A stretch of DNA of 64,000 nt from NCBI GenBank assembly GCA_030016635.1, contig JASEJQ010000003.1, positions 8,520 through 72,519 on the forward strand, given 5' to 3'. The notes below the pieces were generated by a model. It was not told where the DNA came from, did not search any database, and saw nothing but the letters and a program-made list of their open reading frames with translations. Shown here piece after piece: positions 3,056-49,190 of this stretch. Origin of the DNA: Thermoanaerobacteraceae bacterium. GTDB lineage: Bacteria; Bacillota; Thermoanaerobacteria; Thermoanaerobacterales; UBA4877. The position numbers were made by a program, and so were the translations under genes. Position 1 is the stretch's first letter. The number at the start of each line of letters is the position of its first letter.

Positions 3056-4618
3056 TCATCGGCCAGGCGTTACAGCTCTTGCCGCGCCACCTAGGCCACC
3101 TCCAGGACCCATCTGGAAACCACTGCTCCCGGAACTGACAGTAACCTCTACCTCATCACCTTCATTGAGCCCTGATATAACCTCTGCATAGTGTTCATTG
3201 GTAAGCCCTATCTCTACCTTCACAGGTTCGGTTGACCCAACCTTTGTAACGTAAGCCTGCCGTCCTTGATATTTTAACGCCTCTATTGGCACAAGAAGCA
3301 CATTATCCTTCTTTTCCAATACAATATCAGCGTTAACCGTCATGCCTGCCTTGAGCTCCGGAGTCTTATTCATGGTCACCTTTACGTCAAAGGTGGATAC
3401 ACCATTCTGTGCCTTACCCTCATCGGCTATATCCGATATTACACCTTTAAACATCTTGCCCTGCACAGCATCAGAAGTAACAATAACCTCATGGCCCTCT
3501 TTGAGCTTGCCAACATCCATTTCATCAACTGGTATGACAACATTCATTGAGCTGTAATCAACTATACGTGCATCTACAGTGTTGCTGCTTGTATCTAAAC
3601 TTGAAAGGTCATCTCCTACATTTACATTCTGCTCGACTATAGTTCCAGAAATCGGTGCATAGACATACAGGTCTTTTAATTCCTGCTGCTTGGACTCAAT
3701 GTCTGCCATGGCCTGCTCTATCTTCATCTTTTGCAGCTCTATCTGGTCGTCAATGCTGTCCGAGTGTATGGTCGCCAACAGCTGCCCCTTCTTTACTGTA
3801 TCATTTGCCTTTACATACAACTTCTCTATGTCACCGGCAAGCTCTGCCTTTACATTCTCTACGTCTGCCCTCTCTAACAGATTTGTGGTAAATGCCTGGA
3901 CGTTACCTGATGAAGTTATTATCGTGGCATTTACTTTTTCACCACCCTTTAAGCTGCCGGGATTTTTAACCTGTACCTCTACATTATATACAATCCCGCC
4001 TCCCGATGTGGGCTGTGGGCTGCTATCCACGCCTGTCACCGTACCTGTCAGGTTGGAAAGATACTCAGGCAGGAAAACATTCACCTTGTCTCCAACCTTT
4101 ACACTGCCAATCTGTGTCTGCGTTATACCAGCAGTGAACTTGAAATAGCTGTCAGACTCTATGGTTGCAATAACCGTACCCTTATTTACAGAGTCACCCT
4201 CCTTGACATTGATAGCTGTGATTCTCCCATCTATAGGTGAAGTTACTTTTTCCCCAGCCTTTTGTTTATTCAGATCTTTCATATCCATATTGAGCTGTTT
4301 TAGATTGAGCTCTGCCTGTCTGAGAGAGAGGGCTACATTATCGTCCTCTATCACATACAGGAGGTCCCCCTGCTTTACCACATCACCCTCATTGAAATTG
4401 ACCTGAACCAGCTTTCCGTTTCTCCTAAGCCTTATGGTCTCCTCATCAGCTGGCTCCAGTGTCCCCGAGCCGCTGATCCTGATTTCAATGGGCCCCCTTG
4501 TCACCTTTTGTGTAGCCGTAACCACACCCTGTTTTGGCGCACTATTTGCACCGGCAGAACACCCTGCCAGTGAAAATATCAAAATCAATACTGTTAATGT
4601 TAAAAAGAATCTCTTCAC
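3056..4618 (-). CDS. Efflux transporter periplasmic adaptor subunit (HlyD/MacA family), lipoprotein
   Basis: 520 aa with lipobox LAGCS, coiled-coil segments and barrel-sandwich/beta-barrel repeats. Translationally coupled to the ABC ATPase and permease genes. Confidence 0.85.
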
Positions 4619-4851: not shown

Positions 4852-5640
4852 TCATTTCTTTTCCTGCCTTATCATTTCCTTTACAATAAAGGCTGCCACG
4901 TCCTCTGCAAAGCTGCCAGACCCAAAACCTGCATCATAACCCAATTCTCTGGCAAGCTGGTGGGTTATGCGAGGGCCACCGCATACGAGGATAAAGTTGT
5001 CGCGTACCCACTGTGCCTCCATAAGTTCTACCATATTTTTAAGGTTTGATATGTGTACGTCTTTCTGGGTGACCACCTGGGATATCAGGATTGCATCTGC
5101 CTTAAGTTCTATGGCCTTAGCCAATAGCTCCTCATTCATGACCTGGCTGCCTAAGTTGTAAGCATCTATCATCTGATACCTTTCAAGGCCGTAGTGTCCT
5201 GCGTAGCCTTTCATATTCATTATGGCGTCTATGCCAACCGTGTGGGCATCTGTACCTGTACAGGCGCCGACAACAACAATCTTCCTCCCTATTTTTTCTC
5301 TTATTAAGGCATCTATCTCATCCATGGTCATTTCTTCTTTTTCTACCTCTTCCACATGGATGGATGTATAGTCCACGGTATGAGTTGTAGAGGCATAGGC
5401 TACAAAAAATGTATATCCAACGCCGAGGTCCTTTGAGCAGGTGATGTTTATGTCTTCAAAGCCCATACTGGATAGAAGCTCTCTGGCTGCCTCCAAAGCT
5501 TTAGCATCGCATGGAATCGGCAGTGTGAAAGAGAGCTGCATCTTTCCATCATTCATTGTGTCTCCGTATGGTTTTACCTTAGTAAGGTCCAAAGTCCTGT
5601 CGTATTCTTTCTTTCCCAGCGAATAAAGTCCCGAGCTCAT
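4852..5640 (-). CDS. kamE: Lysine 5,6-aminomutase beta subunit (B12-binding)
   Basis: 262 aa with the cobalamin-binding motif DAHTVG inside a Rossmann-like C-terminal half. Overlaps kamD by 4 nt. Confidence 0.9.
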   Translation of the reverse strand: MSSGLYSLGKKEYDRTLDLTKVKPYGDTMNDGKMQLSFTLPIPCDAKALEAARELLSSMGFEDINITCSKDLGVGYTFFVAYASTTHTVDYTSIHVEEVEKEEMTMDEIDALIREKIGRKIVVVGACTGTDAHTVGIDAIMNMKGYAGHYGLERYQMIDAYNLGSQVMNEELLAKAIELKADAILISQVVTQKDVHISNLKNMVELMEAQWVRDNFILVCGGPRITHQLARELGYDAGFGSGSFAEDVAAFIVKEMIRQEKK

Positions 5641-7193
5641 TCGTTTTCACCTCCCAGCATGAGAGGTATGAATGGGTTTATATACTTTTCATCCTTTACG
5701 AATACACCGTCCAAACCTTTACCACCGGTAAACGACCTCTTTACGTCGGCGAATATGCCATCCTCCAGGGATTTAAAGAGTCCCTTTGTCTCCATTTCTT
5801 TTAGCAGGGCCGCTGACTTGTTCAATACCTCTTTTGCCCTTGTCTCTATAATGCCGCCATTCTTAAACTCTATATCATCTCCAAGGTGCTTCATGTTATT
5901 GAATATATATTTTGCATTTTCAATGGACAGATACCTATCCTGAAGGAAGGGAGTGTGTATGGCCTCGGTGAGCATGCCAAGAAGCTGTATGCCCTGATGA
6001 GTCATGATGGCTGCTATATTAAACATGGCGTCCTGTATATGCCCCTTAAATATATTCCCCGTCATGTATTTGGTGGGTGGCATATACTTTATGGGGGCTT
6101 TAGGAAATATCTGTCTTATCATCTGAGCCTGCGCTACCTCATACAGAAACCCGTCGGTGAGGTCAGGATCCATCTCAAAGGCATGACCAAGGCCCATCTG
6201 CTCTGGTGGTATGCCTGCTGCTAAGGCAAACTGTTCGTTTATAAAGTCCGAGGCCAATACAGTATGGGCTGCTTCCACAGCGTCTGCTGTGGTGAGGTAG
6301 TTGTCCTCCCCTGTGTTTATGATAATTCCTGAAAAACCGTTTATCACCCTGGAGAAGAACTGGTCTACCAGCGTCCTCTGCATGTTTATATCCCTGAAGA
6401 GTATGCCGTAGAGGGCATCGTTGAGCATGACATCCAGCCTTTCTAAGGCTCCCATGGCTGCAATCTCCGGCATACAAAGACCTGATGCATAGTTTACCAG
6501 CCTTATATATCTGCCGAGCTCTTTTGATACATCGTCTAAGGCACTCCTCATTATCCTGAAATTTTCCTGGGTAGCAAATGTGCCGCCGAACCCTTCTGTG
6601 GTAGCACCGTAAGGGACATAGTCTAAAAGGCTCTGGCCTGTTGAGCGTATTACTGCAATTATGTCAGCCCCCTGGCGTGCTGCAGCCTGGGCCTGAACCA
6701 CATCCTCATATATATTGCCGGTGGCCACTATGACATAGAGGTACGGCTGCTGCCCTTCACCCAGTTCTTTTAACATCCTCTCACGGGTTTGCCTGTTTTC
6801 TTTTATCCTTTGCATGGCCGGCCTGGCCATCTCATTCGCTTTACCGATTATCTCATCATAAGGCGCACGAGGCATTTTAATTATATCCAGTTCGCCACGA
6901 GCTACCTTTTCAGCCACCTCCTGGGGAATAATATTTCTATTAAGGCAGGCATTGGCTACATAATAAGCGGCACCCAGAGGCAGGGCACTATTTCTTTTTA
7001 TTTCGTCCACAAGCACATTAGGAAGTGGCACTCCGTCATGGGTTACTCCATCCACGCCATAAAGTCTCAATATAGTCCTTTCTGTACTCACCGTTGCTCT
7101 TTTGTCCACAAACTCCTGCACATCATCCGCAATCTTCTTTGCCGATTCTCTGCAGGATGCAATAGTATTTTCATCAAGGTTTAAATGTGCCAC
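5637..7193 (-). CDS. kamD: Lysine 5,6-aminomutase alpha subunit
   Basis: 518 aa of the TIM-barrel KamD/OraS-type family, placed next to kamE and in a cluster with kamA and kdd. GTG start with AGGAAG SD. Confidence 0.9.
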   Translation of the reverse strand: MAHLNLDENTIASCRESAKKIADDVQEFVDKRATVSTERTILRLYGVDGVTHDGVPLPNVLVDEIKRNSALPLGAAYYVANACLNRNIIPQEVAEKVARGELDIIKMPRAPYDEIIGKANEMARPAMQRIKENRQTRERMLKELGEGQQPYLYVIVATGNIYEDVVQAQAAARQGADIIAVIRSTGQSLLDYVPYGATTEGFGGTFATQENFRIMRSALDDVSKELGRYIRLVNYASGLCMPEIAAMGALERLDVMLNDALYGILFRDINMQRTLVDQFFSRVINGFSGIIINTGEDNYLTTADAVEAAHTVLASDFINEQFALAAGIPPEQMGLGHAFEMDPDLTDGFLYEVAQAQMIRQIFPKAPIKYMPPTKYMTGNIFKGHIQDAMFNIAAIMTHQGIQLLGMLTEAIHTPFLQDRYLSIENAKYIFNNMKHLGDDIEFKNGGIIETRAKEVLNKSAALLKEMETKGLFKSLEDGIFADVKRSFTGGKGLDGVFVKDEKYINPFIPLMLGGENE

Positions 7194-7232
7194 GTCATCG
7201 CTTCCTTTCGATATAATGTTTTAACCATCTTT

Positions 7233-7576
7233 GATTTTAGTGTACAAAGCAGTATTCCACGAATGATAGCAACATCCATGCACCTGATCGCTTGTCTTGA
7301 TACTCTAATAATTCGTGGCTGCGTTTCGCCGGGTACGCCTCCATTCGGCGTCCTTGCCTCAAACTTAAGCTCATCCGGCGTCCATGCCGGATGCCCCGGC
7401 TGCACTTGTCACGAATTCAAGAGTATCATAGACTCTCTTTAACCGTCCATGCTTATTTTAAGCACAACCAATAATGAAAATAGGATGATGCGTTGTAAAT
7501 CTTACCATGAGTAGTCTATTTTCGTGTTAAGGTTGCATTTGATGCTCACTATCATTCTTCATAAGGGTTTTTACAG
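7233..7576 (+). repeat. Structured intergenic repeat, copy A (MITE-like; long-core variant with an extra 88-nt internal segment)
   Basis: Arms GAATGATAGCAACATCC (7261-) and GATGCTCACTATCATTC (-7557). Core GCCGGGTACGCCTCCATTCGGCGTCC...ATGCCGGATGCCCCGGC at 7328-7400. Bracketed by a perfect 13-nt direct repeat TTTAACCATCTTT (7220-7232 and 7577-7589). Confidence 0.85.
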
Positions 7577-7577
7577 T

Positions 7578-9158
7578 TTAACCATCTTTTGTTCCATCAG
7601 ATACCCGTTCAGTCAAGCCAGCCTGTATCTGACGAGCCCTTTCTATAATTGAAAAATCTATGCCCATAAGATATGCTATATTGATGGCATCCTGGGGCAC
7701 ATCACTATACCCTACATTCTCTAAACTATAGTCCATATATTGGCGTATTTTTTTTAGCCTGTCTTCCAAACTTAATTTTTCAATCTCTTCCAGGGACATA
7801 TCCTTTAAACCCCTAACCCGATAGTGCCCTATCCCTTCCACGTTCACTCCCTCATAGTGTGTAGTAATGAGTGTTACAGTGTCCATGTCTTTGAGATACT
7901 CTATAATACTTAATAAAAGGGCCCTTCCCTCCGGCGGGTTTGTACCCTGGGTCAGCTCATCTAAGAGGAGAAGTCCCCTATCCTTTTTGAGGTATGGGCT
8001 TAAACCGGCCATGGCATTTCCAAAGCTGGATAGTCCGTTTTCCGGGCTGTCACCTTCTCTGCTCAGATAGATATAGCTAAAGATAGGTACCTCAGCGTGT
8101 GCGGCGGGTACATAGAGGCCATATGAAGCCATCTTAGCTATAAGACCCACCATTTTCAATGTTACCGATTTGCCTCCCATATTAGCCCCGGTAAGTACTG
8201 TAACCCCTTTTTCGAGGGTAATGCTCACCGGCTGATACTTCATGCAGCGTTCTTCTAAAAAGCTCTTAATGTATGGGTGAAAGCCGTCCTTTATATGGAC
8301 AAACATATTGTCTGTTATCTCCGGCGGATTAAGCCCAAGCTTCACAGCCAAATTTGCCCTGGCCAGCAATAGGTCTATATGAGAAGCCGCTTTGAGGCTG
8401 TGCTGTATTTCATCCATGTGTTTCAATACCTCGTCGGTGAGGTGCTCCCTGACCTTAAGCTCTTCCTCCTCTTCCATGTTTTTGAGAACTATAAGTTCTT
8501 TTTCAGTCTTGATGTATTCATCCGACGGGTTAGCACTGATAGTAGCCCTGGTGAGTCCTTCTTTTAATAAATAAAAGCCATTGGGAATTGGTTCTCCTTT
8601 TCCGATATATGCCCTTCCGTCTGGAGATATTTCTAAACCTGTTGACTCTTTGAGCTCTTCAATTCGGTCTGCCATAATCCTATCCATGGTCTTTTTGAGT
8701 CTATCCATCTCTTTTCTTATCTCTTTAAGACGGCTGGAGTAGGAGCTGTATATAAAAAATGATGATGCCTCGCCCTCAATGTTTAAAAGGTTATATACCT
8801 CAGGGACGGGTTTTACAATATATTCCTCGGGGAGTTCTATATCCCTTATGGTGTTATATATCTTCTCAAATGTAAAAAGGTCATTCTTAAGCTCAAATAA
8901 CTCAACCTCTTTAAGCGGAAGACCCTTTTGTGCCCTGTCCAGAGAGCCGGTGATATCCTTTAACGACGAAAGATAATATGCCAGTTCCCTCCTCCATCTG
9001 TCGTCCCGGGAGAGCAACAGTCCTGTAAGCGAAAGGCATTGGCGCACATCATCCTCCTGGCCTGGCTCAAAGGGTGCCATGGCTCTTTTAAGCCTGTGCC
9101 CCCCAGGTGTGAGTACCTCTAAATTATCCATAATATACTCAAAGCCCAGTTCGTCCAT
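7578..9158 (-). CDS. MutS-domain-V-like ATPase embedded in the lysine aminomutase operon (no mismatch-binding domain evident)
   Basis: Walker A GANMGGKSVTLK and Walker B LLLLDELTQGTNPPEG match the MutS family ABC-ATPase domain. Start moved to MDELGFEY (ATG 9156-9158), 2 nt after the upstream stop. Confidence 0.8.
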   Translation of the reverse strand: MDELGFEYIMDNLEVLTPGGHRLKRAMAPFEPGQEDDVRQCLSLTGLLLSRDDRWRRELAYYLSSLKDITGSLDRAQKGLPLKEVELFELKNDLFTFEKIYNTIRDIELPEEYIVKPVPEVYNLLNIEGEASSFFIYSSYSSRLKEIRKEMDRLKKTMDRIMADRIEELKESTGLEISPDGRAYIGKGEPIPNGFYLLKEGLTRATISANPSDEYIKTEKELIVLKNMEEEEELKVREHLTDEVLKHMDEIQHSLKAASHIDLLLARANLAVKLGLNPPEITDNMFVHIKDGFHPYIKSFLEERCMKYQPVSITLEKGVTVLTGANMGGKSVTLKMVGLIAKMASYGLYVPAAHAEVPIFSYIYLSREGDSPENGLSSFGNAMAGLSPYLKKDRGLLLLDELTQGTNPPEGRALLLSIIEYLKDMDTVTLITTHYEGVNVEGIGHYRVRGLKDMSLEEIEKLSLEDRLKKIRQYMDYSLENVGYSDVPQDAINIAYLMGIDFSIIERARQIQAGLTERVSDGTKDG

Positions 9159-9160
9159 TT

Positions 9161-9925
9161 CTATACCTCCACAAGCGGCAACCCGGTAAAAATAAACCTG
9201 TCGGACACCACAACAAGGATGGGTGCCTTTCTGATACAGGCCAGGCCCACCTTCCCGTGTACTTCGAGCCATTCATCTCTTTCCAGGACAAAAGATGAGG
9301 GGTATTCTCCTATTACGGTTATATCGTTACGCCTGCTTAAAATATCCATTATAAGACCGAAGGTAATAGCTCCTTTAATAAAGACCGCCTCTGTATCCTC
9401 TTTTATCATGGCAGCTATGTCTCTACCCCTGCCCAGAGGTAAAAATTCAATAGGGGTTATTTCCTCTCCTATTATAGCTGATTTATCGTTATTTACGCCA
9501 ATCTCCGGTAAATTTAGTCTGGAGTAAAGATAATCATATTCTTCTTGATCTCTTACCGTAAGTGCTATCCCATCGCATACTTCAGGCGAGGTTGAGGCCA
9601 GGATATCAGAGACTATGATTGACCTCTCTGCACCAAGTTCAGGCATGGAAAGTGCCATTTCTCTGCATAATTTGAGCGAGGTTGGCCCTGATACGGTTGA
9701 TGGTGCATCAGTCCTTTTCTTTAATATATAGATGTCTGCCACCTTTTTTATAATTTCCTCTCTTCCCACATCGAAAAAAGAGGCAGTATAGAGGCTACCC
9801 TCCGGTATTGGAATAATCCTTCTGCCAGTCGCCGTAAAGGCGTCCCCCAGTATACCTGCAGCCTCACTCAATCCCCCTATAGCGGTTAATATCTTTACTC
9901 CCTGCAAAACCTCAGTCCTCAACAT
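9161..9925 (-). CDS. Hypothetical protein, partner of the MutS-like ATPase in the kam operon
   Basis: 254 aa from MLRTEVLQGVKIL (GGAGAAAGAAGGAGAA upstream). Overlaps the kamA 3' end by 14 nt. I recognise no motif. Confidence 0.6.
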   Translation of the reverse strand: MLRTEVLQGVKILTAIGGLSEAAGILGDAFTATGRRIIPIPEGSLYTASFFDVGREEIIKKVADIYILKKRTDAPSTVSGPTSLKLCREMALSMPELGAERSIIVSDILASTSPEVCDGIALTVRDQEEYDYLYSRLNLPEIGVNNDKSAIIGEEITPIEFLPLGRGRDIAAMIKEDTEAVFIKGAITFGLIMDILSRRNDITVIGEYPSSFVLERDEWLEVHGKVGLACIRKAPILVVVSDRFIFTGLPLVEV

Positions 9926-11171
9926 TTCTCCTTCTTTCTCTCCTGGGAAGCTCGTTTGGCTCGAGGCATACCTTATCACTGCCCTTACGAAGAAGCTCTG
10001 CCACACCGTCCGTGGCCTTTTCTTTCTGGCAGTCCTCACAGTTGCAATGGCTCACTTTATCCTCGGGCTCTATATATGTGGAAATGACACCCTCATAGTT
10101 TCTCAAGACGACCTTTGAATCGGACATTGATATGAGATACTGTGGCATTACGGGAATCTTACCCCCACCTCCTGGTGCATCTATCACATAGGTAGGTACA
10201 CAGTATCCAGATGTGTGGCCCCGGAGTCCCTCAATAATCTCAATGCCCTTTGCCACTGAGGTCCTGAAATGGCTTATACCCATAGAGAGGTCGCACTGGT
10301 ATAGATAGTATGGCCTCACTCTCATCTTAACCAGCTCATGTACAAGTCTGGTCTGTATATGGACGCAGTCGTTTACTCCCTTTAGAAGGACTGACTGATT
10401 ACCCAGAGGAATACCTGCATCTGCCAGCATAGCACATGCCCTCTTTGAATCCTCTGTAATCTCCTTATAATGGTTAAAGTGGGTATTCAACCATATAGGA
10501 TGATATTTCTTGAGCATATTAACCAGAGATGGGGTTATCCTCTGAGGGCACACCACTGGTGTCCTGCTTCCTATCCTTATTATCTCCACATGGTCTATCT
10601 CTCTTAGTTTTGCTATGATATATTCTAACCTATCGTCGGAAACCAAGAGGGCATCTCCACCGGAAAGCAGCACGTCCCTCACCTGGGGCGTCTCTCTTAT
10701 ATATTCTATGCATTTATCTATCCTGTCCATTGGCATGGCCTCATCGGTCTGCCCTGCAAACCTTCTTCTGGTGCAGTGGCGGCAGTACATGGAGCACTGG
10801 TCCGTAATGAGGAAAAGAACTCTATCCGGATATCTGTGTGTAAGTCCCGGGACAGGTGAGTCAACATCCTCATTTAATGGGTCTTCCATGTCTCCATGGC
10901 CCTTTACCAGTTCTAACGCTGTAGGCACGGCTTGCTTGCGTATTGGGTCGGCGGGATCATCAGGATCTATAAGGGTAGCATAGTATGGTGTTATGGCCAT
11001 ACGCAGAGTCTTTAAAGTATCTTTTATCCCTTCTTCTTCCTCTGGTGTCAGGTTTACCACATGTTTGAGCTCGTCTAAAGTGGTTATACGGTTTCTAACC
11101 TGCCAGTGCCAGTCGTTCCACTCTTCCTCTGTGACATCCTTCCACAGGTCTATATCCATGTATGAACGCAT
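9912..11171 (-). CDS. kamA: Lysine 2,3-aminomutase (radical SAM)
   Basis: 419 aa with the radical-SAM cluster motif CSMYCRHCTRR and the KamA-family C-terminal region. Confidence 0.95.
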   Translation of the reverse strand: MRSYMDIDLWKDVTEEEWNDWHWQVRNRITTLDELKHVVNLTPEEEEGIKDTLKTLRMAITPYYATLIDPDDPADPIRKQAVPTALELVKGHGDMEDPLNEDVDSPVPGLTHRYPDRVLFLITDQCSMYCRHCTRRRFAGQTDEAMPMDRIDKCIEYIRETPQVRDVLLSGGDALLVSDDRLEYIIAKLREIDHVEIIRIGSRTPVVCPQRITPSLVNMLKKYHPIWLNTHFNHYKEITEDSKRACAMLADAGIPLGNQSVLLKGVNDCVHIQTRLVHELVKMRVRPYYLYQCDLSMGISHFRTSVAKGIEIIEGLRGHTSGYCVPTYVIDAPGGGGKIPVMPQYLISMSDSKVVLRNYEGVISTYIEPEDKVSHCNCEDCQKEKATDGVAELLRKGSDKVCLEPNELPRRERRRNVED

Positions 11172-11226
11172 GAAATTACCTCCCTCTATAAATTAATAAT
11201 GAGATTTGTATTTAACTTATTGAGTA

Positions 11227-11257
11227 TGGCATATAACATCCAAAGGCATCCTTAAAG
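11227..11257 (-). repeat. Solo arm fragment of the repeat family, overlapping the kdd stop codon
   Basis: TGGCATATAACATCCAAAGGCATCCTTAAAG matches the arm of copies E and F (E: GGCATATAACATACAAAGGCAGCCTTAAAG). No core is present. Confidence 0.7.
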
Positions 11258-12283
11258 ATAGAGCTCTTCAAAAATCTTCCTAAGTGTCTCGCTCTCTCTT
11301 AATGTCTGAAGAGCAATCTCTGCATGTCCCTTTGTATAGCCGTTACCTATTATCATGTTTACGTCCTTGCCTACGCCCTCTGCGCCCAGAGCTGCCTTTG
11401 TAAAGCTGGTGGCCATGCTGAAGAAGTATATAAGGCCGTCATCTTTTGTGGCAAGTATGGAGGACATCTCTGTATCTGGCACATTTACACAGTTGATTGT
11501 GATATCAGCCAGACGCCCACCTGTGACCTTTTCCACCATTTTTAGAACCTCGGCTGGTTTTGTCGCATCGCCTTGCAGGACAATATCAGCAAATCCGGCG
11601 TCCTTAAGTCTCTTTAAGCTTTTATCGGAGTGGGCCATGGCTATGACCTTGCCGGTAATGCCTGCTCTTTTTTTGGCCTCGTAACAGACCAAAAGGCCGG
11701 ACTTTCCGCCTGCACCTATCACAAATACTGTGTCCCCAGGTTTTACAAGCTTAGCAGTCTGGGCTGGAGCCCCAGCCACGTCTAAGACAGCTAAGGCAAG
11801 GGTTTCTGGTATATCGTCAGGCAGTTTGGCGTATATGCCGCTCTCAAAGAGAATGGCCTGGCCTTCTATTTCTACCCTGTCCACTTCTTTAACTATCCTC
11901 TTTATTTTATGTATCTTTAGTGGTGTAAGGGATAACGATACCAGAGTGGCAATCTTATCTCCCATCTTAAGGTCTCTATCTACCAGGTCTGGCCCAATCT
12001 TATTCACCCTTCCCAGCAGCATTCCGCCAGAACCGGTGACAGGGTTTTGCATCTTGCCTCTTTCGGAAACTATATCCATTATCCTTTTTGCTATCTTATC
12101 CTCATCTCCCCCGCACTCCTCCTCTATCTGGGTGAAGCTGGCAGAGTCTATGTTTAGATAGTCCACATCAATGAGTATCTCGTTGTCATAGATATCCATG
12201 GTATTGTCTATCTTGAGTGCTGGCTGCGGCAGAGCCCCCTTTGGTTCTATTACCCTGTGCGTGCCGTATTTGTTTCCTTTCAT
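11252..12283 (-). CDS. kdd: L-erythro-3,5-diaminohexanoate dehydrogenase
   Basis: 343 aa with Rossmann motif VIGAGGKSG. First gene of the kam cluster, immediately upstream of kamA. Confidence 0.85.
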   Translation of the reverse strand: MKGNKYGTHRVIEPKGALPQPALKIDNTMDIYDNEILIDVDYLNIDSASFTQIEEECGGDEDKIAKRIMDIVSERGKMQNPVTGSGGMLLGRVNKIGPDLVDRDLKMGDKIATLVSLSLTPLKIHKIKRIVKEVDRVEIEGQAILFESGIYAKLPDDIPETLALAVLDVAGAPAQTAKLVKPGDTVFVIGAGGKSGLLVCYEAKKRAGITGKVIAMAHSDKSLKRLKDAGFADIVLQGDATKPAEVLKMVEKVTGGRLADITINCVNVPDTEMSSILATKDDGLIYFFSMATSFTKAALGAEGVGKDVNMIIGNGYTKGHAEIALQTLRESETLRKIFEELYL

Positions 12284-12375
12284 GTTGTAAGACCTCCTTA
12301 TATTGATTTTTTGTTATAACATTTTCAACATGACATATAACATCTATTTTTATATCTCAAGCCGAATTTATATAA

Positions 12376-12390
12376 GCAAGAATCATGCCA
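12376..12390 (-). promoter_or_regulatory. Sigma-54 (-24/-12) promoter of the kdd-kamA operon
   Basis: The minus strand reads TGGCAT-GATTC-TTGC(TT), matching the TGGCAY-N5-TTGCW consensus. It lies about 95 nt upstream of the kdd ATG and directly downstream of an EBP gene. Confidence 0.85.
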
Positions 12391-12416: not shown

Positions 12417-12453
12417 TAAAAAAATAGATGCTGCCCAAAAATAGGCAGTATCT
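12417..12453 (-). terminator. Hairpin plus U-tract at the EBP stop codon (terminator and/or EBP binding palindrome)
   Basis: Minus strand AGATACTGCC-tattttt-GGGCAGCATCT followed by ATTTTTTTAT. A second small hairpin GCCTG-taatat-AGGC plus TTTTT follows at 12401-12415. Confidence 0.65.
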
Positions 12454-13789
12454 ATTTCATACTGTATTTCTTTATTTTATTTTGAAGCGTCTGACGTGGT
12501 ATTTTAAGGAGCCGGGCCGCTCTGGATATATTGCCTCCGGCTGTATCAAGGGCTTCTCTTATTATCCGTTTTTCCTCTGATGCCAGCCTCTCATCAAGGG
12601 AAGCCAGGCCACTATCCTCATTTACCTTGAAGTATGGCGGCAGGTCTGAAATGGTGATATAATCACCGTTCATAAGGTTCATGCTGCCTTCTATCACATG
12701 CATTAGCTCCCGTACATTGCCAGGCCATGAATAGGTCAGAAAGAAGTCCTCCACTTCCGGGGCCAGGCCCTTGACATTTGTCCCCCAGCTTCTGTTAAGC
12801 TTATCTATATAAAATCTGGCAATGTAGAGTATATCCTCGCGCCTCTCCCTTAAAGGAGGTATATACAAAGTTACTGTATTCAACCTGTAGAAAAGGTCCC
12901 GCCTCATACGTCCCTCTTTCAGGACTGACTCAGGATTCTCATTCATGGATGCCATAATCCTGACATCAGTTCTTGTGAGCTTCACACTGCCCACACGCCT
13001 CACAGCGCCATCCTGCAGCACCCTCAGGAGTTTTACCTGTAGCTCTAACGGCATGGCATTTATCTCATCTAAGAGCAGCGTACCACCATCGGCCACCTCA
13101 AAAAGGCCAGGCCGGTCGTCCGCTCCTGTAAAGCTTCCTTTCACCGTGCCAAAAAGTATGCTCTCCAAAAGATTTGAAGGCAGGGCAGCACAGTTTTGAG
13201 CAATGAATGGCCCATTCTTCCTTGGCGACAGGTTGTGGATAGCCTGGATAAACATCTCCTTGCCTGTACCTGTCTCCCCATAAACCAGCACGCTGGAACT
13301 GGTCTTTGCTATCTTTACCGCTTTCTCCTTGACATCGTTTATCTCTCTGCTTACACCTATTATGTCATCGAGGGTGAACTCTGCGCCCTCTACAGTCCTT
13401 CCCCTGCCCTTGTGATACAGCCTGGCCTCCAACTCCAGTATCCTTTCAGAAAGATTTTTTATACGAGTGATATCCTGAGATACCTCTACCGCTCCTCCCG
13501 TGCTCAAAAGAGGATAACTGGAATTTACTGTAGTAATCTTTCTCCCCTTATAATTGATAAAGGACTGCTGTATATTTAAGACAGGCTGACCGGTCTTTAA
13601 TACCTGCAAGAGGGTGCTCTCATTCTCTTTTAGAGATGGATATACCTCCAAAAGGTGCTTACCCAGTACCTCCTCCCTGTCAAGCCCCTCCATATCTATT
13701 AACACCTGATTTATATATATAATCCTTCCATCCCTGTCTATTATCTGGACACCCTCATCCAGGTTGTCCAGGACCTCTCCCAGATCCAT
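12452..13789 (-). CDS. Sigma-54-dependent transcriptional activator (PAS - AAA+ - Fis-type HTH)
   Basis: Walker A GETGTGKE, GSFTGA (GAFTGA-loop variant), ESILFG, C-terminal HTH GGNISRAARLLKIPRQTLQNKIKKY. Confidence 0.9.
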   Translation of the reverse strand: MDLGEVLDNLDEGVQIIDRDGRIIYINQVLIDMEGLDREEVLGKHLLEVYPSLKENESTLLQVLKTGQPVLNIQQSFINYKGRKITTVNSSYPLLSTGGAVEVSQDITRIKNLSERILELEARLYHKGRGRTVEGAEFTLDDIIGVSREINDVKEKAVKIAKTSSSVLVYGETGTGKEMFIQAIHNLSPRKNGPFIAQNCAALPSNLLESILFGTVKGSFTGADDRPGLFEVADGGTLLLDEINAMPLELQVKLLRVLQDGAVRRVGSVKLTRTDVRIMASMNENPESVLKEGRMRRDLFYRLNTVTLYIPPLRERREDILYIARFYIDKLNRSWGTNVKGLAPEVEDFFLTYSWPGNVRELMHVIEGSMNLMNGDYITISDLPPYFKVNEDSGLASLDERLASEEKRIIREALDTAGGNISRAARLLKIPRQTLQNKIKKYSMK

Positions 13790-24646: not shown

Positions 24647-26293
24647 TTGAAAAAGCAAATGGCAGTTCTGGTAGCTGCATTGCTTGTCCTTAGCATGTTT
24701 TTATCGGCATGCAGCAGCCAGGATACCCAGCAGAGTCAGCAGCAAGTTCCAGCCGAGCAGCAAACTAGTGAACCGGTGGAGATAACGGCCAACCTGCAGA
24801 CTGAACCCAGAAGCATAGACCCGGCCAAAAACACTGCTATTGATGGTGGGACGGTGATATATCACATATTCGAGGGGCTTACACGTCTGGATAAGAATAA
24901 TAAAGCAGAGCCTGCAGTTGCAGAGAAATGGGATATTTCCAGTGATGGGCTTACCTATACATTCCACCTGAGGGACGGTGTAAAGTGGTCCGATGGAAAG
25001 CCAGTCACCGCTAAGGATTTTGAGTATGCATGGAAGAGGGTGTTAAACCCTGAAACCGGTTCAGAGTATGCATATCAGCTGTATTACATCAAAAACGGCG
25101 AAAAATACAACAATGGTGAAGCAAAGGTTGAGGATGTCGGTGTCACTGCAAAAGACGACAAGACCCTTGTGCTGACTTTAGAATCACCTACACCTTATAT
25201 ACTGGAGCTCCTGGCTTTCTTTACCTATATGCCGGTGAGGCAGGATATAATAGAGGCTCATCCTGAGGACTGGACACAAAGCCCGGAGACATATATAGGT
25301 AATGGAGCCTTTGTGATGACTGCATGGAATCACAATGACTCTATAGTCCTTGAGAAAAACCCCAACTATTGGGATCTACAGAGGATAAAACCGGATAAGA
25401 TAACCTTTTTAATGATCAATGATGCCAACACAGAGCTAGCTGAGTTTGAAAATGGCCGCCTTGACTTTGGAGATAACCCGCCAGCCAATGACTTCCCAAG
25501 ACTTAAGGAAATGGGAGTACTTCATATAGACCCCAGCCTGGCAACCTACGGATATGTGTATAATACAAAGAAGGCACCCTTTGATAACCCCAAGATAAGA
25601 AAGGCATTTTCTCTTGCCATTGACAGAAAGGCCATAGTAGAAACTCCTCCACCGGTCGGTCAGAGACCCGCAGGGGGATGGGTATCTCCTGGTATACCTG
25701 ATGCTGACCCCACAAAGGACTTCAGGGATGTAGGCGGAGACTATTATGATGTGAACAAGGCCAATATAGAAGAAGCAAAGAAGCTGCTTGCCGAAGCCGG
25801 GTACCCTGACGGTAAGGGCCTGCCTAAGATTACCCTGCTATATAATACCAGCGAGGGCCATAAACAGATAGCCGAAATCCTTCAGGAAATGTGGAAACAA
25901 AACCTGGGTGTAGAAGTAGAGCTGGCCAATGAAGAGTGGCAGGTGTTCTTAGATGACAGAGCTAACGGCAACTATCAGGTGGCAAGGCTGGGATGGTTTG
26001 CAGATTATATAGATCCAATGACCTTCCTGGATATGTTTACTACAGGCAGCGGCAATAACAATGCTGATTGGAGCAACAAAGAGTTTGATGAATTGATCGA
26101 CAAGGCCAAACGTACTACCAATGCAGTTGAAAGAATGCAGTATATGCATCAGGCAGAAAACATCCTGATGGATGAGATGGTCGTATTGCCTATATACTTC
26201 TACGTAAACTCTTATGTGGTAAGACCCAATCTGAAGGGTTACCACATAGACCCGTTAGGATATAATTACTTCCATGAGGCGTATAAGGAATAA
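24647..26293 (+). CDS. Peptide ABC transporter substrate-binding lipoprotein (family 5, OppA/DppA-like), paralog 1
   Basis: 548 aa, TTG start with GGGAGGGG SD, lipobox LSACS. No permease or ATPase genes are adjacent. Confidence 0.9.
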   Translation: MKKQMAVLVAALLVLSMFLSACSSQDTQQSQQQVPAEQQTSEPVEITANLQTEPRSIDPAKNTAIDGGTVIYHIFEGLTRLDKNNKAEPAVAEKWDISSDGLTYTFHLRDGVKWSDGKPVTAKDFEYAWKRVLNPETGSEYAYQLYYIKNGEKYNNGEAKVEDVGVTAKDDKTLVLTLESPTPYILELLAFFTYMPVRQDIIEAHPEDWTQSPETYIGNGAFVMTAWNHNDSIVLEKNPNYWDLQRIKPDKITFLMINDANTELAEFENGRLDFGDNPPANDFPRLKEMGVLHIDPSLATYGYVYNTKKAPFDNPKIRKAFSLAIDRKAIVETPPPVGQRPAGGWVSPGIPDADPTKDFRDVGGDYYDVNKANIEEAKKLLAEAGYPDGKGLPKITLLYNTSEGHKQIAEILQEMWKQNLGVEVELANEEWQVFLDDRANGNYQVARLGWFADYIDPMTFLDMFTTGSGNNNADWSNKEFDELIDKAKRTTNAVERMQYMHQAENILMDEMVVLPIYFYVNSYVVRPNLKGYHIDPLGYNYFHEAYKE

Positions 26294-29435: not shown

Positions 29436-29457
29436 ATACACTTTAACCTCATATGAT

Positions 29458-29727
29458 TACACTGCATAAAGTAGACAGAGTCGGCATGTAAAGGCCGGAG
29501 GCACCTTAAAGTAAGGCTTAGCCGCTCTTAGTCTCGAAACAAGTGAGGCAGGGGCATCCGGCATGGACGCCGAATGGAGGCGCACCCTGCCGAGCGAAGA
29601 AGCGAGAATTAGAGCAGCTTGCCGAATGATCAGGTGCCAAGGCTTTTGCTGCTGGCTAAACAATGACTCTCTTTAAGGCCACATTTGACGCTGTATGTCA
29701 TGCTCAAATGGGCTCTCACACTCAAAT
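29458..29727. repeat. Structured intergenic repeat, copy B (short core, inverted relative to its arms)
   Basis: The outer arms are oriented as in copy C (TACACTGCATAAAG...GGCATG...; ...CTCTCTTTAAGGCCACATTTGACGCTGTATGTCATGCTC). The core at 29547-29591 is the reverse complement (GGCAGGGGCATCCGGCATGGACGCCGAATGGAGGCGCACCCTGCC). Bracketed by CT(C/T)ATATGAT. Confidence 0.8.
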
Positions 29728-29728
29728 C

Positions 29729-30907
29729 TTATATGATATTTAACCTTTTACCGACCCTTTCAAATGCCTTTAGTGCAAAGTCAAGATCCTCTTTTGTATG
29801 GTCAGCAGTAACTATTGTCCTGACCCTGGCTCTCCCCATAGGCACAGTAGGATATACTATGCTCTGGGCAAAAACCCCCTCTTCAAAAAGATTGTCGCTC
29901 AGAGCATTTGCCAGCTTGCTGTCGCCTACAATGACAGGTGTAATTGGGGTCTCACTATTTCCTGTATTAAAGCCCATCTCTTTAAGCGCTGCCTTAAAAT
30001 ACCTGGTGTTGTCCCAAAGCTTGTCTGTGTATGATGTATCTGACGAGAGGATATCTATGGCAGCTATACAGGCTGCAGCAACTCCCGGTGTAGGAGCAGT
30101 GCTGAAAAGCAGCGGCCTGCCCCTCTGAATAAGGTAATCTTTCAGTTCCTTCCTGCCTGCCACATATCCGCCGACCACACCGATGGCCTTTGATAATGTA
30201 CCTATCTGAACATCAACCCTGCCGTGAAGATTAAAGTGGTCAACAGAGCCTCTTCCGCTTCTTCCCAGCACACCGCTGGCATGGGCGTCGTCTACATATG
30301 TTATGGCACCATATTTTTCAGCAAGCTCAACAATCTCAGGAAGCCTGGCTATGTCGCCGTCCATGCTGAATACTCCGTCCGTTATAATCATCTTATGATT
30401 GTAGCCGGTACAGGACTTTAAGACCTCCTCTAAGTCCTTCATGTCACTGTGCTTATACCGTTTGACCTCTGCCTTGCTAAGTCTGCAGCCGTCAATTATG
30501 CTTGCATGGTTCAGCTCATCGGATATTATGACATCCCCTTCATCTACAAGCGCAGGTATAGTTCCCATGTTTGCAGTAAATCCTGACTGAAAGACAAGCA
30601 CCGCTTCTGCTCCTTTAAACTCAGCCAGTTTTCTCTCCAGTTCTTCATGGATGCTCATATTGCCTATGATGGTCCTTACCGCGCCTGCACCTGCCCCATA
30701 TTTCTTTGTGGCTTCAATAGCAGCCTCTTTTAGTTTGGGGTGATTGGCCAGGCCGAGGTAGTTGTTTGACGACAGGTTTATGACCTCTTTGCCGTTTATG
30801 ACTGCTCTGGCACCCTGAGGGCTGCCCAACACCTTCAGGTCATGATAAAGGCCTTGTTCTTTTAGCTCAGCAATCCTTTCCTTTAAAAATTCAAGCTGGT
30901 TTGCCAT
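29729..30907 (-). CDS. kbl: Glycine C-acetyltransferase (2-amino-3-ketobutyrate CoA ligase)
   Basis: PLP-dependent alpha-oxoamine synthase family with Lys motif GTLSKAIG. Start set at [10 protein letters not shown] (GGGAGGGA SD). Confidence 0.9.
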
Positions 30908-30936
30908 ATGTATCCCTCCCTGATTATAATTTTGAT

Positions 30937-31160
30937 TCCAGTACATAACCTATAAAGCATGGCATATAACATACAAAGGCAGCCTTAAAGCGAGTCTATG
31001 ATACTCTTAATGAGTGGCAAATGTAGCCGGGGCATCCGGCATGGACGCCACATGGAGGCGTACCCGGCGAAATGCAGACACGAATCGTAGAGTATCAAGA
31101 TGAACGCTCAGGTACCAGGATGTTATTGAAATGCATGAAGTGCTTAATGCACCTGAAACC
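30937..31160 (-). repeat. Structured intergenic repeat, copy E (short core), between tdh and kbl
   Basis: Plus strand: GGCATATAACATACAAAGGCAGCCTTAAAGCGAGTCTATGATACTCTTAATGAGTGGC..., then the core at 31026-31068 GCCGGGGCATCCGGCATGGACGCCACATGGAGGCGTACCCGGC. Confidence 0.8.
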
Positions 31161-31182
31161 AATATTAATTATAGTATTAACT

Positions 31183-32391: not shown

Positions 32392-34038
32392 TTACTCCGC
32401 AAAATATGCATGATGGAAATATATATATCCAAGCGGGTCAACAACATAACCCTGCAGCTTCGGGTCAACAATCACATAGTTGATATAGAAGTATATGGGC
32501 ATCACCACAGCATCATCCATAAGTATATCTTCAGCCTTGTGGAGATACTGCATCCTCTCTTCAGGTGTCTTTGCAGTCTTAGACTTCTTTATCATTTCAT
32601 CAAACTGAGGATTGGAATACTGTGCGTCATTATTGCCCATACCAGTCTGCAGCATATCCAGGAATCCCATGGGGTCTATATAGTCGGATACCCAGCCCCA
32701 TCTGGCTATTTGATAATCATGGGTCTGCCTCCTGGTAGCCAAAAATACCTGCCATTCCTGATTGGCTATTTTAACATCTACGCCCAGATTTTGTTTCCAC
32801 ATCTCCTGAAGCGCTTCTGCTATGGCCTTGTGGCTCTCGCTGGTATTGTAAAGCAGCGTTACTTCAGGCAGGCCTTTGCCATCAGGATAACCTGCTTCGG
32901 CAAGGAGTTTTTTAGCCTCCTCAATATTTGCCTTTGTCGGGTCAAAGTAGTCGCCGCCTACTTTCCTGAAGTCTTCACCCGGCTTTGCATCAGGCATGCC
33001 ATATGGTACCCATGCCGCTGCTAATGGCTGACCACCTTTTACTATCTGGTCTACTATAGCCTTCCTGTCTATAGCCAGAGAAAATGCCTTCCTTACCTTC
33101 GGGTTATCAAACGGCGCCCTCTTTGTATTAAATACATATGCATAGGTAGAGAGGAGCGGATATTCCTTGAGCACACCCTCCTGCTTTAATCTTTCCAGCT
33201 CTGTGGAAGGTGGATTATCGCCAAAATCCAGTGCTCCTGTCTCAAATGTGGAAAGTTCAGTAGCAGCTTCAGAAATCATTGTAAATACAAGTTTATCAGG
33301 CTTTATATCATTAGCATTCCAGTAGTTCTCATTTTTTACCAATACTATGGAATCATTGTGGTTCCATTCAGCCAACTTAAAGGCACCGTTGCCTATATAG
33401 GTTTCAGGATTCTGTGCCCAGTCATCTGGATGGGCCTCTACGATGTCCTTTCTAACCGGCATATAGGTCATAAAGGCAAAAAGCTCCATAATAAACGGTG
33501 TAGGGTTCTCCAGTGTAACCTCTAAGGTCTTTTCATCAATTACTTTTATACCAAGGTCCTCTGCCTTTGCCTCTCCCAGATTGAATTTCTCAGCATTTTT
33601 GATGAAATAAAGCTGATAAGCATAGCTGGATGCGGTCTTCGGGTCTAAAGCCCTCGTCCATGCATAGGCAAAGTCTTCTGCAGTCACCGGTTTGCCGTCA
33701 GACCACTTTGCATCCCTTAAATGGAATGTGATCTTAAGCCCATCATCAGACATTTCCCATTTTTCTGCAATACCGGGTTTTGCCTTTGAGTTCTCATCCA
33801 GGGTGGTCAGACCTTCAAAGACGTGTAAAATAACCTCAGCCCCATCAAGAGCACTGTTGAGTGCAGGGTCTATAGTCTGTGGCTCTGTCCCCATGTTATA
33901 ACGTATGACCACCTCTTCTGGACTGCTGTTATTCTGTCCCTGGTTTTGCGGGCTTTGCTGCTGTCCGCCTGAGCTGCAGCCTGCGACCATTGATAATACC
34001 ATCAAAATGGCCAGGCCGATAGTCAAAATTCTCTTCAT
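32392..34038 (-). CDS. Peptide ABC transporter substrate-binding lipoprotein (OppA/DppA-like), paralog 2
   Basis: 548 aa, lipobox VAGCS. Collinear with paralog 1, for example the shared block EAKKLLAEAGYPDGKGLP. No transporter genes are adjacent. Confidence 0.9.
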   Translation of the reverse strand: MKRILTIGLAILMVLSMVAGCSSGGQQQSPQNQGQNNSSPEEVVIRYNMGTEPQTIDPALNSALDGAEVILHVFEGLTTLDENSKAKPGIAEKWEMSDDGLKITFHLRDAKWSDGKPVTAEDFAYAWTRALDPKTASSYAYQLYFIKNAEKFNLGEAKAEDLGIKVIDEKTLEVTLENPTPFIMELFAFMTYMPVRKDIVEAHPDDWAQNPETYIGNGAFKLAEWNHNDSIVLVKNENYWNANDIKPDKLVFTMISEAATELSTFETGALDFGDNPPSTELERLKQEGVLKEYPLLSTYAYVFNTKRAPFDNPKVRKAFSLAIDRKAIVDQIVKGGQPLAAAWVPYGMPDAKPGEDFRKVGGDYFDPTKANIEEAKKLLAEAGYPDGKGLPEVTLLYNTSESHKAIAEALQEMWKQNLGVDVKIANQEWQVFLATRRQTHDYQIARWGWVSDYIDPMGFLDMLQTGMGNNDAQYSNPQFDEMIKKSKTAKTPEERMQYLHKAEDILMDDAVVMPIYFYINYVIVDPKLQGYVVDPLGYIYFHHAYFAE

Positions 34039-40170: not shown

Positions 40171-40195
40171 TAAATTTCCCCTCCCTAATATTATT

Positions 40196-40453
40196 AATTA
40201 CACTGAAAGAAGTCTATATTGGCATGCCAACGGCATCCATGTGCCTGATCGTTTGTCCTGATACTCTAATATTTGCCGCTGCATTTCGCAGGGTACGCCT
40301 CCATTCGGCGTCCATGCCTCAGGTCGGCTCATCCGATATCCATGCCGGATGTCCCTGCTCCATTTGTTGCAAATCCAAGAGTATCATGGACTCTCTTTAA
40401 GGCCACATTTGATGCTGTATGTCATGCTCAAATTGGGTTTTTACACCCAAACC
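40196..40453 (+). repeat. Structured intergenic repeat, copy C (long core), between iadA and OppA-like paralog 3
   Basis: Arms GGCATGCCAACGGCATCCATGTGCC / GGCCACATTTGATGCTGTATGTCATGCTC. The core at 40288-40358 has closing helix GCAGGG...CCCTGC. Confidence 0.8.
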
Positions 40454-40454
40454 A

Positions 40455-41615: not shown

Positions 41616-41698
41616 CTTATGCAGCTCCTTCTAAGCCAAAACTTTAATCAATGGTTATGTTCCCTCCTTTCTATAAAACTTTTGCCATTATAATATAA

Positions 41699-41713
41699 GC
41701 AAATTTCATGCCA
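41699..41713 (-). promoter_or_regulatory. Sigma-54 (-24/-12) promoter upstream of iadA
   Basis: The minus strand reads TGGCAT-GAAAT-TTGC(TT), about 85 nt upstream of the iadA ATG. Confidence 0.8.
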
Positions 41714-41736: not shown

Positions 41737-41779
41737 ACTTTAATGGGGTGAAATTCAATCCATTTCACCCCATTAAAGT
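41737..41779. promoter_or_regulatory. Perfect 18-bp inverted repeat overlapping the EBP stop codon (candidate enhancer site and/or terminator)
   Basis: ACTTTAATGGGGTGAAAT-tcaatcc-ATTTCACCCCATTAAAGT. No U-tract follows on the minus strand. Centred about 70 nt upstream of the predicted sigma-54 start site. Confidence 0.5.
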
Positions 41780-48877: not shown

Positions 48878-48935
48878 TGGTACACCTCCAGATATAATTA
48901 TACACCAAAAGTCTATAGATTTAACCATGGAAATG

Positions 48936-49190
48936 ATTTTTGTATAAGAAGTCTGTTTGCGAATGATAGTGGCACCCATGCACCTGAACACTCGTCTTGA
49001 TACGCTAATAATTCGTGGCTGTATTCCGCCGGGTACGCCTCCATTCGGCGTCCTTGCCTCAGGGTCGGCCTCTTAAGTCCATGCCAGATGCCCCGGCTAC
49101 ACTTGCCACTCATTAAGAGTATCATAAACTCTCTTTAAGGCTGCATTTGGTGCTCACTATCATTCTTCATAGGGGTATTTACAGTACAAT
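48936..49190 (+). repeat. Structured intergenic repeat, copy D (long core), upstream of pth
   Basis: Arms GAATGATAGTGGCACCCATGCACC / GGCTGCATTTGGTGCTCACTATCATTC. Core at 49028-49097. Bracketed by a perfect 10-nt repeat CATGGAAATG (48926-48935 and 49191-49200). Confidence 0.85.

Follow-up and report, generated by a model that had tools for sequence, protein, structure and literature searches.

A 384-nt spacer in a lysine-fermentation operon of a Thermoanaerobacteraceae bacterium is probably a mobile hairpin element with a TwoAYGGAY RNA core

INTRODUCTION

Why should an otherwise compact lysine-fermentation operon contain a gap of 384 nt between two of its genes? The question is raised by a 64-kb stretch of DNA from a Thermoanaerobacteraceae bacterium (GenBank assembly GCA_030016635.1, contig JASEJQ010000003.1, positions 8,520 to 72,519), here called the window, in which kamC and kamD form a kam operon that also includes kamE, kamA, and kdd. 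The genes at issue all lie on the minus strand. kamC (7578 to 9158), known as a MutS-like gene from a first-pass annotation of this DNA, encodes the lysine 5,6-aminomutase reactivase ATPase (NCBIfam NF052383, 479 bits; Pfam MutS_V); its start is likely the MDELGF start at 9158, the longest open reading frame (ORF) extending to 9272, and the protein is a 100% match to a 526-aa protein of a Thermoanaerobacteraceae metagenome-assembled genome. kamD (5637 to 7193) encodes the lysine 5,6-aminomutase alpha subunit (NCBIfam NF052384, 923 bits) and has a GTG start and the ribosome-binding site GAAAGGAAG.

The first-pass annotation had placed a repeat element in this gap and had read its 13-nt bracket, which includes the kamC stop codon, as the mark of real transposition. 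Here, we report that the gap is probably a mobile-element insertion at the kamC stop codon. We consider it likely that the spacer is one copy of a small (~230 to 350 nt), noncoding, hairpin-forming mobile element of the miniature inverted-repeat transposable element (MITE) type.

RESULTS

A repeated 13-mer at the kamC stop codon

Within the window, there are just two occurrences of the 13-mer TTTAACCATCTTT, at 7220 to 7232 and at 7577 to 7589, both on the plus strand and with 344 nt between them, which bears out the perfect bracket described in the first-pass annotation. KamC ends in T-K-D-G-stop, and the right copy of the 13-mer encodes K-D-G together with the stop codon (7578 to 7580). Once the element and one repeat copy are removed, 27 nt separate the kamC stop from the kamD GTG, in good agreement with the ~30 nt estimated earlier; in distant kam operons, the same spacer measures 29 and 95 nt. 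We drew 20,000 random pairs of 30-nt windows, 200 to 360 nt apart, from the window itself, and an exact shared word of at least 10 nt was present in 0.13% of these pairs and one of at least 13 nt in 0.02%. The KamC tail adjoining the insertion site is evolutionarily labile: after ..IERAR (7578 to 7620), it is 10 to 11 residues longer in the window than in the homologues from Gudongella, Caloranaerobacter, and L001, a relative described below.

The element belongs to a family of intergenic repeats

BLAST, a repeat search, and an nhmmer profile identified at least six copies of the repeat family and two fragments in the window, all of them intergenic; on the ORF map, the element falls into the gaps, and its copies are noncoding and 230 to 350 nt long. 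Copies A to D of the first-pass annotation are real, but its count of four fell short, since there are six full copies, with the additional ones at ~30935 to 31165 and ~63440 to 63711, plus a solo arm. Copy A, in the kamC-kamD gap, is a long imperfect hairpin on the minus strand, sense within the kam operon. It spans 7236 to 7582 (347 nt) in register with copies D and F, or 7233 to 7576 (344 nt) if the 13-mers are the duplication. Copy C (40199 to 40452, minus) lies between iadA and oppA in the sense orientation, and copy D (48936 to 49190, minus; 255 nt) lies just upstream of the pth promoter. Copy F (29458 to 29727, plus; 270 nt), which is copy B of the first-pass annotation, is a one-hairpin variant between the kbl stop codon and the terminator. 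Two further one-hairpin variants are copy G (~30935 to 31165, plus; nhmmer, 200 bits), which sits between tdh and kbl and is antisense to the genes, and copy E (~63438 to 63711, minus; nhmmer, 172 bits), which has an extra internal hairpin and sits between prs and a response-regulator gene. The termini of five of the six copies have the same chromosomal orientation.

The kam operon also holds a solo 5'-arm fragment of the E/G subtype (11208 to 11261, plus), with BLAST identities of 94% over 36 nt to copy E and 87% over 45 nt to copy G and an nhmmer E value of 6e-8. Little of the 80-nt kdd-kamA spacer is left free by this arm, which runs antisense to the operon and has the kdd stop codon within its CCTTAAAG end. 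This arm is a relic of another insertion into the kam operon.

Empty sites in relatives demonstrate a 10-bp target duplication

Close relatives were found via Kbl and Pth homologues, and gene order is conserved in them. They comprise loci L010, L015, and L001 of Logan SRR15070234 (94% identity to the window protein for Kbl, 82% for Pth, and 72% for KamC, respectively), L011 of Logan SRR23823812 (Kbl, 92%), L012 of JGI 2044078008 (Pth, 80%), and L008 and L013 of GCA_036771835.1 (Kbl, 88%, and Pth, 76%). Copies D, F, G, and E are absent from the syntenic relatives, and an nhmmer search of ~100 kb of the relatives' DNA found no family copies except in L001.

At the copy F site, the gene strand of the window reads ..AATATCATATAAG, followed by the 270-nt element, ATCATATGAG, and the terminator GTTAAAGTGTATGCCG; at the same position, L011 reads ..GGTATAATATAAT TTGATAATGTGTATGCCG, L010 is similar, and L008 is empty too. 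The kbl-ispE spacer measures 392 nt in the window versus 113, 113, and 174 nt in relatives. The bracket of copy F consists of CTCATATGAT (29448 to 29457) and CTTATATGAT (29728 to 29737), which match at 9 of 10 positions and include the kbl stop codon (29729 to 29731). At the copy D site, the sequence reads ..GTTAACATTTCCATG, the 255-nt element, and CATTTCCATG GTTAAATCTATAGACTTTTGGTGTATAAT in the window and ..ATTAACATTTCCGTGGTTAAACCAGTTGACTTTTGGTGTATAAT in L015; the empty site upstream of pth in L015 is TTAACATTTCCGTGGTTAAACC, compared to TTAACATTTCCATG, 255 nt, and CATTTCCATGGTTAAATC in the window, and the promoter is conserved. The copy D bracket, CATGGAAATG at 48926 to 48935 and at 49191 to 49200, is identical at all 10 positions. 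Copy C has a weaker bracket, TATTATTAAT (40189 to 40198) and CATTATTCAA (40453 to 40462), with 7 of 10 matches and the iadA stop codon inside. All three brackets were found as the first-pass annotation had given them: perfect in copy D, with one mismatch and the kbl stop in copy F, and weak with the iadA stop in copy C.

Where the relatives lack copies D and F, the 10-bp sequence that brackets each of these elements in the window stands only once. The spacers occupied by the remaining copies are also longer in the window: ~270 nt versus 65, 82, and 45 nt in three relatives for tdh-kbl (copy G), and ~420 nt versus 108 nt in L013 and L014 for prs to the response-regulator gene (copy E). Because the D and F sites are single copy when empty and copies G and E are missing from relatives, these sequence comparisons indicate that the family is mobile, or was in this lineage, and duplicates 10 bp of its target. 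The earlier claim of real transposition with target duplication is thus sound for the family; copy A itself comes without an empty site.

The position upstream of pth may be an insertion hotspot. L013, the more distant relative, has ~190 extra nt (9757 to 9943) at the exact position of copy D, between ..TTAACA and ATTTCCCATGGTTAAA, and this insert ends in AGACTTCTTA, like copy D. As a candidate family member, it was rejected: it gave no alignment above shuffled sequences and no Rfam match. The closer relative L015 is empty there.

The element core is a TwoAYGGAY RNA motif

Using cmscan, the core of copy A (7285 to 7442, minus) was matched to the full length of the TwoAYGGAY RNA model (RF01731) with 56.9 bits and that of copy C (40246 to 40400, minus) likewise with 54.5 bits, relative to a gathering score of 43. 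Both matches are on the minus strand, which is the gene strand. The first-pass description of the repeat was accurate as far as it went, but it had overlooked that the core is a described RNA motif. No RF01731 match was obtained for copy D, E, F, or G, and for D, F, and G there was none even at an E value of ≤10. The copy A core comprises a long closing stem and two hairpins with the loops AUGGAC and AAGGAC, the second of which has A at the Y position; the copy C loops, AUGGAU and AUGGAC, both fit AYGGAY. Copies E, F, and G have a single hairpin with the loop AUGGAC, which looks like the loss of one hairpin via a deletion between the two. In copy D, the first hairpin is degenerate and one loop is AAGGAC.

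Every copy folds as one long imperfect hairpin, with z-scores of −4.6 to −5.6. Copy A folds at −111 kcal/mol (z = −5.6), and its opposite strand is nearly equal in stability. In a test of G-U versus A-C pairs, the Rfam strand was more stable by 3 to 15 kcal/mol in five copies and less stable in one. The consensus fold of the six copies contains 48 pairs, 19 of them with compensatory changes, through which the long stem is preserved between subtypes. Pairwise identity between copies is 35 to 50% in the termini (25 to 30 nt) and 74 to 84% in the closing stem and core.

Some copies have been rearranged. Copy F is matched by nhmmer on both strands: its termini are oriented as in A, C, and D, its asymmetric core is reversed relative to them, and it carries an extra inverted 5' arm (29622 to 29716) that is 90% identical to the copy C arm. 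Its center looks to have been flipped via recombination between the element's own inverted arms. Copy A alone contains an 88-nt segment (7443 to 7530), inserted in the 5' arm between a TTAA (7439 to 7442) and its own terminal TTAA (7527 to 7530). The first-pass annotation was right that this segment is flanked by TTAA and missing from the other copies, now five in number; its suggestion of a nested insertion gained no support from any second copy, since neither the window nor any fetched locus contains another match and there is no significant similarity to the L001 copy. The segment holds one promoter-like site at chance level, TTTACA-17-CATTAT (minus, 7499 to 7471). Copy E (~63500 to 63560) and the L001 copy (~3850 to 3905) differ from the other copies by an additional hairpin, GGGACATT..GTGTCCC, inside the 3' strand of the long stem; the subtype so defined is older than the separation of the two lineages.

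The original description presents TwoAYGGAY as a candidate RNA with an often very large P1 stem and notes P1 stems of ~24 bp (Weinberg et al. 2010, PMC2864571), and CsrA binding has been put forward as a hypothesis in another study (PMC4333381). The portions of the published descriptions examined treat the motif as a candidate small RNA or a CsrA-binding RNA and make no mention of mobility. The seed alignment file (Weinberg et al. 2010, Additional file 4, TwoAYGGAY.sto) names the Psychromonas ingrahamii record (NC_008709.1) 21 times; in the portion inspected, conserved sequence common to five P. ingrahamii copies extends well beyond the motif, and reiterated GUAACACGCCGUCAGGGCGGAAGACCAAC modules lie downstream of the copies. 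These shared flanks would make TwoAYGGAY part of a larger repeated unit there too, as far as the alignment portion goes, which fits a repeat-element nature.

Searches for the core pattern GGACGCNNNATGGAGGCGYACCC yielded only chance matches, at one locus in species-representative genomes and five loci in JGI metagenomes, and none in viral contigs. The matches inspected are GC-rich and unlike the element; one adjoins an Alpha_RBS match (rpoA region). On these scans, the element subfamily is essentially unsampled. BLAST of the core against plasmids and phages gave no match.

Copy A within the kam transcript

A sigma-54 promoter, TGGCATGATTCTTGCT (12375 to 12390, minus), lies upstream of kdd. It is one of four perfect matches to TGGCA-N6-TTGCT on the minus strand of the window (the others are at 41698 to 41713, 56756 to 56771, and 61238 to 61253), which precede kdd in the kam operon, iadA, a coenzyme A (CoA)-transferase/thiolase cluster, and an acyl-CoA dehydrogenase/electron transfer flavoprotein cluster. 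Three sigma-54 activators are encoded in the window as well (12452 to 13789, 41773 to 43740, and 49993 to 52062), and sigma-54 seems to control the genes for lysine and butyrate fermentation in this stretch. Promoter and terminator scans of 7100 to 7700 revealed nothing above chance and no intrinsic terminator in the element. The arm motif TGGCATATAACAT was considered as a sigma-54 promoter and rejected on account of its −12 element, which is ATCC rather than TTGC. Since copy A is sense oriented within a sigma-54-driven transcript and has no intrinsic terminator, the stretch of the kam mRNA between kamC and kamD should contain the long hairpin and its two GGA loops. Such a hairpin could bind CsrA-type proteins or act as a processing or stability site.

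Copy A might accordingly be viewed in another way, as a retained functional TwoAYGGAY RNA module of the kdd-kamA-kamC-kamD-kamE mRNA whose mobile origin is secondary. The module would bind a CsrA-type protein or direct processing and thereby uncouple kamDE from the upstream genes. We regard this as unlikely, if deserving of some weight. The Rfam-level two-hairpin fold is confined to copies A and C, each of which reads in the sense direction and stands between co-transcribed genes of a sigma-54 operon, while D, F, and G, placed elsewhere or antisense, go unmatched even at the permissive E value; the GGA loops fit the proposed CsrA-binding motif (PMC4333381). Read-through is plausible given the absence of an intrinsic terminator, and a related copy at the same junction in L001 has a 58-nt core, GCAAGGACGCAGAATGGAGGCGCACCCGACGAAATGCAGCCAC, that is 86% identical to copy A, with the remainder, including its 5' part, not alignable. 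On the other hand, the comparison has n = 2 (A and C), both strands fold about equally with no clear sense-strand G-U excess, and gene conversion from other copies could account for the conservation of the core.

Boundaries of copy A and length of its duplication

With copy A taken as a mobile-element insertion, its ends can be set beside those of its sister copies. Reading the plus strand with flank, bracket, and element separated by slashes, the left ends are TTTAAC / CATCTTTGAT / TTTAGTGTACAAAG in copy A, TTTAAC / CATGGAAATG / ATTTTTGTATAAGA in copy D, and TTTAAC / CTCATATGAT / TACACTGCATAAAG in copy F, and the left termini of these three elements align without gaps (nnnnnTGnAnAA). The right ends are GGGTTTTTACAGTTTAAC / CATCTTTTGT in copy A, GGGCTCTCACACTCAAAT / CTTATATGAT in copy F, GGGTTTTTACACCCAAAC / CATTATTCAA in copy C, and GGGGTATTTACAGTACAAT / CATGGAAATG in copy D. 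In register with D and F, the left, kamD-side copy of the duplication in A is the noncoding CATCTTTGAT (7226 to 7235), and the right, kamC-side copy is CATCTTTTGT (7583 to 7592), which encodes ..T K D of KamC. The two agree at 8 of 10 positions, compared to 10 in D, 9 in F, and 7 in C, again with gap-free termini.

The hexamer TTTAAC (GTTAAA on the gene strand; 7220 to 7225) makes up the first 6 nt of the left 13-mer and recurs at copies D (48920 to 48925) and F (29442 to 29447). TTTAACC had been correctly noted at the left flanks of A, D, and F, with the caveat that it could be target preference or element sequence. In the empty D site, GGTTAAA (TTTAACC on the plus strand) already stands beside the single bracket copy, and the GTTAAA hexamer is present in L015 and L013. 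Because the empty site contains it, the hexamer is target flank and not element, so that only the first half of the caveat stands. TTTAAC occurs 33 times on the plus strand of the 64 kb, yet it lies beside the duplication in three of three defined insertions, which indicates target preference.

We judge it fairly likely that the copy A duplication is 10 bp, with 8 of 10 matches, and that the element spans 7236 to 7582. The perfect 13-mer would then be composed of the first 7 nt of the duplication and 6 nt where the terminal hexamer of copy A, TTTAAC, coincides with the target flank TTTAAC; the other copies have TCAAAT, TACAAT, and CCAAAC at that position. Of the 13-nt target-site duplication first proposed, the 13-mer itself is thus present, but 6 of its nucleotides are read here as element terminus, an outcome that goes part of the way toward what the first-pass annotation had itself named as counting against its proposal.

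That the element is exactly 7233 to 7576 (344 nt), with TTTAACCATCTTT as a 13-bp target-site duplication, seems quite unlikely to us. The repeat is perfect at 13 of 13 positions and unique in the window, chance gives words of this length in only ~0.02% of random pairs, and duplication length is known to vary for some transposase families. However, the boundaries of D and F are fixed by empty sites, with duplications of 10 bp; the 13-bp boundaries would take 6 nt from the right end of copy A and add 3 nt to its left end relative to D, F, and C. The 10-bp register, in contrast, aligns all termini without gaps and places the right 6 nt of copy A against the three hexamers of its sisters. The KamC reading frame and stop codon are the same under the two readings. 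An unoccupied kamC-kamD junction would be expected to read ..ACAAAAGATGGTTAAAACATTATATCG.., and an unoccupied site ..GATGGTTAAAAC.. is compatible with both.

Age of copy A

The first-pass annotation expected an empty site in a related strain, with the 13-mer once between the MutS-like gene and kamD; the L001 junction proved to be occupied by a decayed copy. This copy has an extra hairpin in its 3' arm, as in copy E, and a bracket in the same register, AGCTTAGCTA / ATCTTTGCTG, with 7 of 10 matches and spanning the L001 kamC stop. The L001 kamC-kamD spacer is also 384 nt long. The idea that the equal spacers are collinear orthologues was rejected, since without gaps the two are no more identical than background and their cores lie ~60 nt out of step; the equality in length is coincidental. 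The 5' arm and the 88-nt insert of copy A gave no significant match in L001.

The kamD-side flank of the spacer is ~70% identical between the window and L001, as read by eye from the alignment, and at this level of flank identity an 8/10 bracket in copy A is roughly as expected for an insertion older than the lineage split. Copy A is presumably older than D and F, and we lean toward a shared ancient insertion as the origin of copy A and the L001 copy. The alternative is a pair of independent insertions at a hotspot, in keeping with the different architectures of the two copies and the 10 to 11 additional residues of the window KamC tail.

Other features of the window

A tetrahydrofolate (THF) riboswitch (49257 to 49352, plus; 78.5 bits) lies upstream of the S component of an energy-coupling factor (ECF) transporter (folT-like, 49393 to 49959). 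The riboswitch is conserved in L013 and L015, and copy D is located between it and the pth promoter. The window further contains three 548-aa ORFs, at 24647 to 26293 (plus), 32392 to 34038 (minus), and 38524 to 40170 (minus). The third encodes an OppA-type substrate-binding protein, and the syntenic genes in L008 and L013 carry an SBP_bac_5 domain; DNA repeats of 71 to 78% identity link the first ORF to the second and the second to the third. The three look like oppA paralogues, the first two by DNA repeat similarity only.

DISCUSSION

MITEs are nonautonomous elements moved by a transposase encoded elsewhere. On the scheme we propose, the family found here consists of nonautonomous DNA elements that would be moved in trans by such a transposase, which would cut AT-rich intergenic DNA next to GTTAAA with a stagger of 10 bp. 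The D and F sites show the duplication of host sequence itself; the class of enzyme is our inference. Like the bacterial MITEs Correia, RUP, and MIC231, the element is small, noncoding, multicopy, intergenic, and able to form a long hairpin, and it shares with them a target duplication of fixed length, insertion at gene ends and promoters, and the absence of a transposase nearby. A 10-bp duplication is at the long end of the MITE range and is known for IS4/IS231-type and ISAs1-type elements. Measured against the working definition, the element is a MITE on all but two counts: it has weak terminal inverted repeats (roughly TGTA-A-AAA), and its conservation is highest in the center and lowest at the termini. 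Also unlike those MITEs, it has no known parent insertion sequence. With REP/REPIN and IS200/IS605 palindrome-associated elements, the family has in common hairpin-forming intergenic repeats, a bias in chromosomal orientation, and a short adjoining target motif. Those elements insert without target duplication, whereas 10-bp host sequences are duplicated here, and the D and F empty sites led us to reject this class.

The family also resembles TwoAYGGAY RNA (RF01731). The cores of copies A and C score above the gathering threshold and have the two GGA hexaloop hairpins and the very long closing stem of the motif, which occurs in Clostridia and, in the seed alignment as far as inspected, is multicopy with conserved flanks in at least one genome, that of P. 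ingrahamii. In contrast to the published motif, the one found here is the center of a larger unit (230 to 350 nt) that duplicates its target site and for which empty sites have been verified. Of the six copies, four fail the model, one hairpin being lost in E, F, and G and degenerate in D, and A and D each have one AAGGAC loop.

Several observations weigh against copy A being a recent MITE-type insertion. It has no empty site, and the only close relative, L001, whose KamC is 72% identical, has a decayed copy at the same junction; the distance from the 3' junction to the kamD GTG is 38 nt there and 39 nt in the window. Copy A could thus have been kept in the operon for a long time, possibly with a function there, instead of having hopped in recently. 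Its 8/10 register relies on homology with only two well-defined sister copies, and at copies G and E, where exact boundaries cannot be aligned with relatives, no duplication was identifiable. No transposase was found among the window ORFs scanned (~29 of 51), most of the others being syntenic with housekeeping genes in L008 and L013, nor is there a known autonomous partner. Taken as a whole, the element forms an imperfect palindrome, yet its end-to-end inverted match is weak, and the rise in conservation toward the center is the reverse of that in classical MITEs.

Two other modes of spread fare poorly. Retro-insertion via an RNA intermediate, like that of short interspersed nuclear elements, with the structured RNA core recognized by the mobilizing enzyme, strikes us as highly improbable. 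It would suit a center that is more conserved than the ends and that is a recognized structured RNA, as well as an apparent bracket length of 10 to 13 nt, but we found neither a reverse transcriptase nor an A-rich or other 3' tail, nor any series of 5' truncations; the duplications are a constant 10 bp in register, and a flipped core within unflipped termini in copy F bespeaks recombination at the DNA level. Scarcely credible is the view that the bracket is no duplication but terminal sequence of the element or a preferred recombination core, as in site-specific integration or IS200/IS605-type insertion, for although TTTAAC recurs to the left of A, D, and F, a hexamer like it closes the element, and the termini of five of six copies point the same way along the chromosome, the 10-bp brackets are wholly different between copies (CATGGAAATG, CTCATATGAT, and CATCTTTGAT), and those of D and F are single in the relatives' empty sites, so that host sequence was duplicated and the view is contradicted.

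We return, then, to a MITE-type element as the likely nature of the kamC-kamD spacer. The insertion itself is ordinary biology. What is modestly new is that an Rfam motif left an orphan for 16 years, with a CsrA-sponge role as the only proposal for it, is tied to mobile DNA with verified empty sites. Scattered multicopy matches to TwoAYGGAY need not equal as many small-RNA genes, and the maintenance of a palindrome at the DNA level may be part of the reason why the long P1 stem covaries. A broader proposal, which we offer as a long shot from sequence patterns, is that TwoAYGGAY is in general the transcribed core of a mobile element family, whose sense copies in operons, such as copy A in kam and copy C in iadA-oppA, would be kept with both GGA hairpins through host use as protein-binding or processing modules, so that transposition might wire new operons into a CsrA-type posttranscriptional circuit. 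If only the sense copies inside operons retain both hairpins, the RNA would have been co-opted by the host.

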